From assembly GCA_047631715.1 (NCBI GenBank), contig JBLICC010000003.1, forward strand, positions 1 to 34,499: a stretch of 34,499 nt of DNA, written 5' to 3'. The position numbers and the translations under genes are program-made. The notes under the pieces were generated by a model, which worked only from the letters and a program-made list of their open reading frames with translations, did not search any database and was not told where the DNA came from. The DNA comes from Alteromonas naphthalenivorans (GTDB lineage Bacteria; Babelota; Babeliae; Babelales; CAIQNR01). Positions 16,087 through 23,799 of the stretch are shown here, piece by piece; positions within the stretch are counted from its first letter, which is position 1, and each line of letters opens with the position of its first letter.

Positions 16087-19000
16087 TTATATAATGACAG
16101 GTTGCCTCAGAATAGCGGCAATTCTTGCACCCAGATCTAAGAGCGCTGTTCTTGGTGATTGCGTTGGCATTCTAAGCCCTGCTTGCCGTTGCTCTGGCCG
16201 CTGTGGAGATTGATATGCTGGCGGTTGATCTGAGTCTTGTTGCCGTTGTTGTTGCGGCTGCTGTTGTTGCTGAGGCCCGCGTGAATCTTGCTGCTGTTCT
16301 TGTTGCGGAGCTTGATACGCTCGTGGTTGATTAGATTCTTGTTGCTCTTGTTGTGGCTGCTGTTGCTGCTGAGGGCCACGTGAATCTTGTTGTTGTTCTT
16401 TTTGATGCCCTTGTTCTGGAGCTCTATAGTTAGGTGGTGGACTTTGCGGTCTCCCCGAACCATGTTCTGATTCTCTTGGTGCAGCTGGTGGTCGTGAACT
16501 TTGTTGTTCCATAAGCTGTGGCGTTCCATGCCCTGCTACTAACTCGCGTCTTGCTCCTGGTGCCATTGGAGGTTTTTTATTTTCTTGAGCATAGTGAATC
16601 GCTCTACTAATGCTTCCTGGTAATGTTAGTCGTAATGAACCTGGGTCTGCCGTTGCATTTTTAAATTGTTTTCTAATCAATTTCAACCCTTGCATGCTCA
16701 CAGTATTACCGGTTGGATACAGATATTTTTTATCACTTTTTTTAGGTTCAAATATTGCACCACTGCTATAATCAACCAATGTACCAACACCGTATGTTGA
16801 AACCATGTTCTTAAAGAGATCAAACGCTCTTGCTGTTGATCCATCACCAGTATCGTACTGAGTTTTATCTTTTTCAAAATAACTCTCTGCTACTCGTAAT
16901 GGTGGGATTCGATACAAGATTCGTTTTACTGGATTAGAGAAACCAATCAGATAATCGGAACCAATTGATCCTTGAGGAACAGAAACATTAACTCGAGGTG
17001 TTGCTGAAATCTCTTGAACAAGTTGCATGTGTCCTTCAGCATTGGTAAACACATTTACCGATTGTTTTAAGTCGCTCAGTTTTTTATCTGATGCATAAGA
17101 ATAAGCAAATCCATAAATCGCTTCATCTTGTTGATCCAATCTAAATCCAAGATATGAACTTTGAATTGCCACACCGGATGCAGATTTTTGTCCTGTGAGT
17201 GAGTAGTTAGTAACGATTGCTTGAATGCCACCACTTCGTGATTGATAGTCTGCAAATTGTCCTAATCGCGGTGTACCTTGAGTGGCAACATAGAAGTCTG
17301 ATTGCATACTTGGAATAAACCCAATCATTGCATCTGAGTCAGCACTCGTAACTCCACACAGTGCGGTACCCAATGCCGCGATACCTGTTGGAATTCCTGT
17401 GTGTCCTTTTCTGTTACCCATACCTTCGGCAACAAATGAACGACCGTAGACTAATGCTTGAGTAAGTTTATTGGTTTGCGCTAATGGATATTTAAATCCT
17501 TGAATGCCACCCTCTACATACTGCATGTTACCCATTTGATAACGTTTTGGCATAGATTCTGTCATCTCCGAAAAGGTTACTGAACCATTTTGCATTCCAG
17601 ATGGAGATATATCGTAATCAATTCTATACAGCTTCCAACCGGCTTTCATCACTTGTTCTACTTCTGAAGTGTAAGCAAGTTCTGCCACTTGCGATTGTGT
17701 CATGCCACTGGTATCAATATTTTTAGGAACAGAAAGATTTTCTCTTTGTAAGTTTTCTGGATCTTGTGCCGACCCCATCATGCGCATAGGAGTTATCTGT
17801 TTACCTGCGCCTTCTCCCGACACATGGTATCCAAGATACATGATTTTCGATTTATCAGAGCTTTGAAATTTATGCACACTGCTAAATTGAACATACATAT
17901 ATTGAGAATAACCTTGGCCAACATTAGCCATAACATTAAGTGACTGACCACCATATGAGTTATTTGCTTGACCCCACATAAAGAGTGGTTGTTGCACATC
18001 TACAACTTCACCACGTTCATCTTTTTGTAATGCATATGCAACAGAACTTTGTTCCATACGTGGCTGACCATTAACATAATATTCATCACCACTCATAAGA
18101 TCTACAAAGTAACCGTTATCAGCTGCTTTTGATTCACCTTTGGTATACGCATTACCTGTAACATCTTGTACTAATGCATAGTAAGCGCGAGTTTTTATAT
18201 GATAGTAATAGTAATAGCGTTCCCCTTTTGCATTATTAGTTACTGGATTAATATGTTTTGCATTAACCATGTATCTACCATCTTTTCCATAATCAGGAAT
18301 CAATGTTTTTTCTCCTGGACCAAGTGGTAATGGAATACGTGTTACCGGAATGGTTACTTCTTGTTCGCCGTTTGGTGCAACCGCAATTCCATGAGCTGCT
18401 CGCATTGCCTCTAACTCAAATCCTGTAAGAGCAGAAGTTGGAACCATAAATTGAGAATTCTTATCTTTTGGAAGTGTATAGTACACACCCAAACTTGAAT
18501 CTCTTTTTTGATCGGTTGCGTTAAAGTCAAAGATTGTAGTCAGTGATTGAGTTTTATTTTTGTCTGTTCCTGCAAGAACCGATTTTGCCTGTAAGAAATA
18601 CTCTCCGCCTACAGTAATAAGATGTGAACTTGGTACACTTGCATCATCAATTGTAGGTTGCGTTACTGCTCTTGCATGTTTAAGTGCTTCGATTGGCAAT
18701 TGCGGTGCACTGTTTAAAAGAGATCCTTCTTTTTGTAACTCTTTACCTTGTCGTATATACAAAGTGTTAAGTTCCATAATTCTTTGTGCAAGCGCAGGAT
18801 TAATTTTGGACTTAGTTGACCTTTCTATCATTTGCATTAGCAATGATGGCACAGACCCTTCTCGTCCTCCATTTTGGGCTAGTACAACAGATTGTAGATA
18901 GTTTGGTATTGATTGACCACTAACTGTATATACCGATCCTGTTACTAAACTCATAAGCGTTTTAGTATAAGGAGTAATTGCTTTGCCACCTAGGCCTTTA

Positions 19001-23799: not shown

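Follow-up and report, generated by a model that had tools for sequence, protein, structure and literature searches.

Is the sequence motif that recurs along a giant, predicted-secreted protein of Babelota a genuine repeated domain, and what could such a protein be for? The question is raised by a gene of Alteromonas naphthalenivorans (Babelota; Babeliae; Babelales in GTDB) that lies in the window analysed here, a stretch of 34,499 nucleotides making up the whole of contig C3 (JBLICC010000003.1) of an 845-kb genome that is 90% complete (GCA_047631715.1, hereafter G000). An earlier note, made from this sequence alone, had proposed that its product, which we call the giant, contains a beta-rich module of no known family, repeated 5-7 times and building a large surface or injection structure. 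The sequences point to a real and undescribed repeat domain, which marks an undescribed secreted module of Babelota whose roles are predicted. The gene and its units are as follows:

16087..23799, reverse strand: giant protein gene (P0001), 2570 aa, single copy, between trxB and pepA
22321..22608, reverse strand: unit U1, class A (residues 398-493); hhalign to U5 92
21385..21714, reverse strand: unit U2, class A (residues 696-805); its FG hairpin lies near residue 595, ahead of an insert
20761..21186, reverse strand: unit U3, class A (residues 872-1013); hhalign to U5 97.5
19507..19770, reverse strand: unit U4, class A (residues 1344-1431); hhalign to U5 98, element order as in U5 in the model
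18913..19158, reverse strand: unit U5, class A (residues 1548-1629), the most canonical copy, folded alone
18322..18630, reverse strand: unit X1, class B (residues 1724-1826), the eighth unit; hhalign to U7 92 over 72 columns
18052..18228, reverse strand: unit U6, class B (residues 1858-1916), bridging both classes; hhalign to U7 93 and to U5 91
16636..16947, reverse strand: unit U7, class B (residues 2285-2388); placed by hhalign, confident in the model

The seven decapeptides put forward as ends of the module are all found in the open reading frame (ORF), within about 15-20 nt of where the note had placed them (residues 474, 791, 999, 1419, 1615, 1898, and 2341, that is, window positions 22380, 21429, 20805, 19545, 18957, 18108, and 16779). 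The motif pattern matches 7 times in the giant, while 5000 shuffles average 0.026 matches and never exceed 2; this comparison is inflated and circular because the pattern was drawn from the very motifs tested. Elsewhere in the genome it occurs in 6 of 1,529 other ORFs, once in each and never more often. Among 22 aligned relatives, with 20-55% identity, the motifs stand at orthologous positions.

The homology of the units is established by comparing their profiles with hhalign, each profile being made of positional orthologs from 56 family ORFs (rows of the family f6 that were misassigned between U3 and U4 were excluded). U5 is matched by U1 with probability 92 (77 columns), by U2 with 96 (62 columns), by U3 with 97.5 (61 columns), and by U4 with 98 (73 columns), and the pair U2-U3 reaches 96. 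Within class B, X1 matches U7 with probability 92 (72 columns) and U6 matches U7 with 93 (40 columns), and U6 is also matched to U5, with probability 91 over its final 33 columns. None of the 28 reversed-profile decoys exceeds 2.2. Direct comparison is weak for many pairs (U1-U2 0.8, U2-U4 3.0, U5-U7 14, U3-U4 65), so the set is linked via U5 and U6, and the copies must be old. Judged from these profiles, there are eight homologous units in two classes, A (U1 to U5) and B (X1, U6, and U7).

The class A unit consists of a long helix, a PxxFG hairpin, a short helix, a YxY strand, a DYxV strand, and an SLxTGxxY hairpin. The order of residues recognised earlier, from P-x-x-F(G) to G-x-x-(Y/F), is complete in U1 to U5, whereas U6 and U7 share only its last strands and the hairpin. 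Class B has Tyr-rich strands and the same hairpin as class A, to which X1 and U7 add a helix and a further hairpin. The module is indeed repeated, with eight units instead of 5-7, X1 having been missed, and it is alpha/beta with integral helices and not simply beta-rich. Units are spaced by 190-440 residues, and their order is kept among 99 long representatives, in which individual units are detected in 72-99 cases. The well-conserved columns of the unit are aromatic, Gly, Pro, Asp, or Ser, with no conserved His, Glu, or Arg; aromatic conservation reaches 95 of 95 rows at Y1573, and five further columns are 67-96% aromatic.

The unit profile also matched a second large secreted ORF, c0 (1,340-2,010 aa), encoded elsewhere in genomes that have the giant. 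The tandem units of c0 align with U4-U5 with a probability of 99.5 over 247 columns, and they align in four registers (97-99) to the alignment of the giant's N-terminal part, which provides a held-out confirmation of the repeat. The unit is matched at E <= 1e-5 by 33 of the 41 c0 ORFs. In 20 of 20 loci c0 ends a c2-c1-c0 run (c2 lying past the contig end in one), and signal-like N-termini are found in 19/20, 16/19, and 14/15 sequences across the three operon proteins, by the simple hydrophobicity rule that was also applied to the giant. The layout of c0 comprises a long Gly/Ala-rich hydrophobic helical region, a coiled coil, a beta-sandwich, and two class A units, and its several hydrophobic stretches have 19-residue means of up to 1.9-3.2. 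In c1, a single conserved helix is accompanied by a coil and by a sandwich related to that of c0 (probability 80). A model of the c0-c1 complex scores 0.38, and the best of its 3 controls scores 0.00; no fewer than 13% of the contacts agree between runs, and the predicted local distance difference test (pLDDT) of the partner is at least 71. This mark is reached by 116 of 157 solved pairs and by 2 of 215 mismatched ones, and scores of 0.60 or under include only 18 of the 157 solved pairs, but both mismatches. Binding of c0 to c1 is thus weakly predicted. The genes uvrC and clpB usually follow c0 and were treated as neighbours only, not as parts of the module, and at 12 of 20 loci an M23 peptidase gene is oriented head-to-head with the operon. 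Some loci depart from this organisation. In G056, c2 and c1 form one 977-aa ORF (L129:6037-8967). In the family f1 (L111 of G001 and other loci), all four proteins are swollen by long inserts, with c2 of about 1,200 aa as compared with about 500 elsewhere. In G068 (L125), the operon is in pieces, and second copies of c1 and c2 lie on the same contig.

The giant and the operon are present or absent together. The giant, always in single copy, is found in 49 of 261 Babelota genomes (of 50 initial matches, that of G197 is an unrelated 779-aa ORF and was left out), and the unit profile returns the same 49 genomes plus one weak match in G112 (E 6e-4). The core of c0, searched with a repeat-free profile, occurs in 50 of the 261, c1 in 49, and c2 in 48; the genomes these have in common with the 49 of the giant number 48, 48, and 47, respectively. 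Apart from the window's own genome, discussed below, the exceptions are G015 (81% complete), with the operon but without the giant, G131 (64% complete), where c2 is missing, and G077, with a 2.5-kb fragment of c0. Because related genomes are not independent, presence was mapped on a tree of pepA, the usual downstream neighbour of the giant (34 positive and 18 negative genomes; a quick search on one gene). It requires at least 5 changes, 4 of which are forced by well-supported branches; the negatives G127, G036/G052, and G035 lie beside positives, and all four genes are missing together in several nested lineages. Among seven other large proteins of the window's genome, single-protein queries in 2 positive and 3 negative genomes gave none with a distribution like that of the module.

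Outside these genomes, a unit search of 1.84 billion representatives gave 187 clusters (50% identity) at E <= 0.001. Among the matches listed (150 of the 187 clusters), all are orthologs, shortened paralogs, or fragments, and the three that name an organism are 'hypothetical protein' entries of Babeliales or Dependentiae. The unit family is probably restricted to Babelota. Shortened paralogs (P0137, P0146, and P0153) keep the N-terminal helical region and the class B half, with one class A unit (U3 or U5) or none, and retain the hydrophobic helix ahead of the single class A unit. P0137, P0146, and the full-length P0105 have one and the same value for the length of their longest contig, which suggests a local expansion.

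The unit matches no known family, in agreement with the earlier proposal: there is no Pfam, NCBIfam, or Protein Data Bank (PDB) sequence match, and the structural matches are all unclear. Pfam has no match to the repeat in the giant, and among 95 unit sequences no Pfam family matched more than 2. NCBIfam returns nothing useful, only matches of coiled-coil type far below cut-off. PDB sequence profiles match none of the units, the best E-value (0.0006) falling on a coiled-coil stretch of c0 and being judged a chance result. The proteins c0, c1, and c2 likewise have no family match in Pfam, NCBIfam, or PDB sequences; in the ESM Atlas, which otherwise gave nothing usable, c0 reaches scores of 0.76-0.78 with clusters of PelX_N and 3-keto-disaccharide-hydrolase, which hints at a ConA-like sandwich for c0 alone. 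Three candidate families were compared. Beta-propeller blades (WD40, PQQ) have no sequence match in the giant and are not listed among those of the 95 unit sequences, and the units are far apart and contain helices; RHS/YD-repeats have no Pfam match, and YDxxG occurs at most once per unit of 90-150 residues; PepSY (PF03413) has no Pfam match in the giant or in the 95 unit sequences.

Structure prediction gives a model of residues 1334-2400 with a mean pLDDT of 76.8 and a predicted template modelling score (pTM) of 0.66 (45 sequences), which suggests that they form one ordered body, a C-terminal half that would be rigid; in it, the secondary structure elements of U4 and U5 follow one another in matching order. 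U5 with its flanking helices, folded alone from 95 unit sequences, has a pLDDT of 82.2 and a pTM of 0.66. Its best VIA match among 48,161 representative chains is 4ntq_A (Z 3.4, root-mean-square deviation [rmsd] 3.2, 60 aligned residues), and the top rows also include 4v5k_AY (Z 2.4, rmsd 4.0, 71 aligned), all scores for U5 being below the typical chance best of Z 7-8. Only 20 of the 48,161 chains reach Z >= 2 and none Z >= 5, and no propeller, PepSY, or RHS chain is among the 20. A Foldseek check on U5 agrees, nothing in PDB or among the viral models matching at E <= 0.001; with the large model Foldseek returns propeller rows only, which are non-specific (TM-score 0.05-0.08, rmsd >20). As far as the models go, the structure searches neither show different folds nor prove the fold of U5 to be new.

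Apart from the units, the giant has the following parts, its orthologs spanning 1,700-2,900 aa:

23719..23799, reverse strand: predicted Sec signal peptide (about residues 1-27), without lipobox, from the sequence
22795..23718, reverse strand: variable acidic low-complexity region, then a likely coiled coil (residues 28-335); poorly conserved, net charge -24
22669..22746, reverse strand: moderately hydrophobic conserved helix with an FxxP end (residues 352-377); in this genus a cationic amphipathic helix precedes it
17617..17892, reverse strand: inserted beta-meander domain of WGR-like arrangement (about residues 1970-2061); VIA Z 7.1, rmsd 2.4, 68 aligned, 2ra8_A
17101..17454, reverse strand: inserted small beta-barrel (about residues 2116-2233); VIA Z 6.5, rmsd 3.7, 88 aligned, 6czj_B
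16090..16587, reverse strand: Gln/Pro-rich low-complexity tail (residues 2405-2570), not conserved, from the sequence and the alignment with relatives

A signal-like hydrophobic stretch is present in 48 of 53 family ORFs, with a lipobox-like Cys in 1. The hydrophobic helix is detected in 94 of the 99 long representatives, and the FxxP that closes it in 49 of 53 family rows. The meander and the barrel both sit between U6 and U7. The WGR-like match lies below Z 8 and may reflect a common arrangement only; the best match of the barrel is a designed barrel, tied with many others and again at the level of common arrangements. In three genomes the giant is split in two ORFs, by either assembly error or decay: by a frameshift in G071 (L045), by N bases in a gap in G106 (L054), and by one in-frame TAG in G131 (L068).

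The giant usually lies next to the gene used for the tree above:

14453..15976, reverse strand: pepA, M17 leucyl aminopeptidase (Pfam PF00883), usual downstream neighbour

The gene pepA is adjacent to the giant, or one ORF off, in 36 of 43 judgeable loci. A functional link between the two was rejected, since pepA stays where the giant is absent: 188 of 191 Babelota genomes have it, with or without the giant, and all 18 negatives inspected have a pepA locus lacking the giant gene, seven of them with the trxB-pepA order intact and the slot empty. Hence, pepA is probably a positional marker outside the module.

With which known systems can this set of four proteins be compared? The type III translocators SctE/SctB (IpaB/IpaC, SipB/SipC, YopB/YopD) presumably resemble it in the Gly/Ala-rich hairpin of c0, of consensus xxTGGxx; the likeness is one of plan, with one hairpin subunit (c0) and subunits having a single hydrophobic helix and coiled coils. 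By hydropathy and consensus, c0 has a hydrophobic helical hairpin and a coiled coil, whereas the giant has one such helix only. What sets the module apart from SctE/SctB is that its proteins are predicted to carry Sec signal peptides, that its subunits are much larger, and that it contains a new repeat domain. SseC (PF04888) was over cut-off in 0 of 5 genomes and had no match on c0, 18 c0 cores, or the giant, and the type III gate SctV/FlhA was looked for in 5 positive genomes, which are 95-99% or 94% complete, and found in none of them; controls matched in 4 of 14. The alpha-pore-forming toxins (the ClyA family Hbl/Nhe, and XaxAB/YaxAB) offer a second parallel, namely secreted subunits with hydrophobic helices that are in part paralogs of one another and come from one operon; c0 and c1 have a C-terminal sandwich in common, and their binding is weakly predicted. 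We take the set as a whole to be reminiscent of a multi-subunit toxin or translocon. Unlike these toxins, none of c0, c1, c2, and the giant has a sequence match to them, beta-sandwich and repeat domains are added, and there is a fourth, unlinked partner of 2,000-2,900 aa, the giant. By sequence, the four-gene module is in neither the SctE/SctB nor the alpha-pore-forming toxin families. The BECR fold (CdiA-CT 4ntq, colicin E3 4v5k), a beta-meander with a helix, provides the best yet weak structural neighbours of one unit, and it differs from the unit by a chance-level score, 7-10% identity, no conserved residues of catalytic type, and one terminal domain instead of eight copies. Finally, the repeat proteins of Dependentiae with ankyrin, WD40, F-box, LRR, or TPR domains, as described in PMC4776705 and PMC6561590, are likewise secreted by a protist parasite and presumed to act on the host; the giant matches none of the families named there and is single-copy, syntenic, and not expanded.

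These comparisons lead to the reading we prefer, a leading candidate that still falls somewhat short of probable: the giant, c2, c1, and c0 would be subunits of a Sec-exported assembly that inserts into a host membrane, most likely that of the protist food vacuole. The many hydrophobic helices of c0, with one from c1 and one from the giant, have the anatomy of a multi-subunit membrane-inserting assembly. Export would proceed through Sec and then a type II secretin; the helix run of c0 would form the pore, to which c1 and the giant would add one helix each; the repeats are predicted to be a rigid, tyrosine-rich arm binding the target or partners; and the assembly might serve escape from the vacuole or delivery of signal-peptide effectors. 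A GspD-type secretin is encoded in the window's genome, and parts of type II secretion are core genes according to PMC4776705. The cultured Chromulinavorax destructans has left the food vacuole for the cytoplasm by 3 h, and signal peptides are present on 44% of its proteins, according to PMC6561590; all isolates infect protists, as stated in PMC12172432. The fuller version of this reading is doubtful: a Babelota translocon fed by Sec and type II secretion, in which the four secreted proteins would open a pore in the vacuole membrane, releasing the bacterium or passing effectors, and whose repeat would have a fold absent from solved structures. The surface or injection structure of the earlier note is plausible in a loose sense only, given the signal peptide, the hydrophobic helix, and a co-occurring partner rich in such helices, and there is no sign of a needle or tube.

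Several observations weigh against an assembly of this kind. The giant and the operon stand at two distant loci, and their co-occurrence indicates that they serve a common process, not that they form a single complex. Searches of the window's own genome did not recover the operon; its usual neighbours uvrC, clpB, tpiA, and secG are missing there too, and its upstream neighbour ends contig C27, so that an assembly gap is the likely cause. With these queries the module is missing from about four fifths of the phylum, though all members are thought to be intracellular. In G001, a congener of the window's genome, c0 has no detectable repeats, which implies that docking of repeat to repeat is not essential there. 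The helix of the giant has no more than moderate hydrophobicity, and the amphipathic stretch leading into it, of hydrophobic moment 0.92 here, is weak outside this genus (family median 0.47, background 0.38). A pore-forming fold of c0 is putative, and so are the membrane insertion, activity, and location of the four proteins.

The alternative that survives best, though we consider it rather unlikely, is that the four proteins belong to the envelope of the bacterium itself, as a scaffold or channel that is anchored in its membrane and lies in the periplasm or at the surface, the helices being anchors and the repeats a spacer or lattice. The single copy, the fixed place by housekeeping genes, and a domain order kept over 20% identity are more typical of machinery than of fast-turnover effectors; a signal peptide followed by one hydrophobic helix fits a membrane-anchored protein, and the M23 peptidase gene facing the operon in 12 of 20 loci points the same way. 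However, the module is dispensable in close relatives, and the codon usage of the giant (rank 353 of 641) is unlike that of abundant proteins, weak evidence against an S-layer. In the family f1, positive charges stand ahead of the helix, opposite to what the positive-inside rule leads one to expect after a cleaved signal peptide. The marginally hydrophobic helices of c0 presumably resemble insertion domains more than anchors.

It is less likely still that the giant acts by itself, as a multivalent adhesin or a receptor-binding protein whose tyrosine-rich repeats bind host glycans or lipids, the operon co-occurring via a common host type or entry route. In favour of this, the conserved unit positions are mostly aromatic, but these residues may simply be the hydrophobic core. 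The number of class A units varies, from five down to one or none in paralogs, and the giant and the operon are unlinked; adhesins, however, tend to differ in copy number and to be replaced fast, while the giant is single-copy, tracks the operon almost exactly, and has a domain in common with c0. Very improbable is the notion that the repeats are enzyme-like or inhibitor modules, either degenerate BECR-type RNase folds (4ntq_A and 4v5k_AY are among the top VIA rows of U5) or PepSY-like inhibitors of the PepA encoded next door in 36 of 43 loci (the terminal hairpin presumably recalls PepSY), since Z 3.4 is far under the chance best, the well-conserved columns lack His, Glu, and Arg, no PepSY match exists among the 95 unit sequences, and PepA, unlike the giant, lacks a signal peptide and persists in genomes without the giant.

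Several other genes of the window and of its genome were recorded. Upstream of the giant's slot, and conserved there in many relatives, is a thioredoxin reductase gene (23981-25465, reverse strand) whose product has a hydrophobic segment at the N-terminus and a thioredoxin domain fused at the C-terminus. It is followed by a gene for an FtsH-like AAA protein of 889 aa (25674-28343, forward strand), which has a long N-terminal region, matches the M41 peptidase only weakly, and is conserved across relatives, and by a 624-aa Lys/Asp/Glu-rich ORF (28447-30321, reverse strand) with a signal-like start, a short C-terminal tandem repeat, low GC, and no Pfam match. At the other end, a 1692-aa secreted protein with weak WD40 matches precedes a 457-aa unannotated ORF (1385-6463 and 1-1371, reverse strand), with no link to the giant seen. 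Elsewhere in the genome, a 1,893-aa unannotated secreted helical protein (L132:121-5799, contig C42) was not found with its query in 5 other genomes, and two proteins of 1,117 and 965 aa with no Pfam match (L135:821-4171 and L136:548-3442, contigs C31 and C11) are conserved in 5 of 5 genomes tested, independently of the module.

No description of the giant, the repeat, or the operon was found in the literature by title or abstract start, a scope that leaves aside supplementary tables and subscription papers; the supplementary ortholog lists of PMC4776705 could name these genes as hypothetical proteins. On the sequence evidence, the domain and the four-gene module belong to none of the families tested. 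Babelota have many signal-peptide effectors and reach the host cytoplasm, and none of the papers searched describes a route by which they cross the host membrane; the four-gene block gives named candidates for this step. Kept or lost as a block, the module is also a marker for sorting the phylum according to how its members infect their hosts. Should the proposed mechanism prove mistaken, the unit still represents a new and well-defined family of domains, whose structure is predicted with confidence and has no clear match, and hence a good target for structural work.

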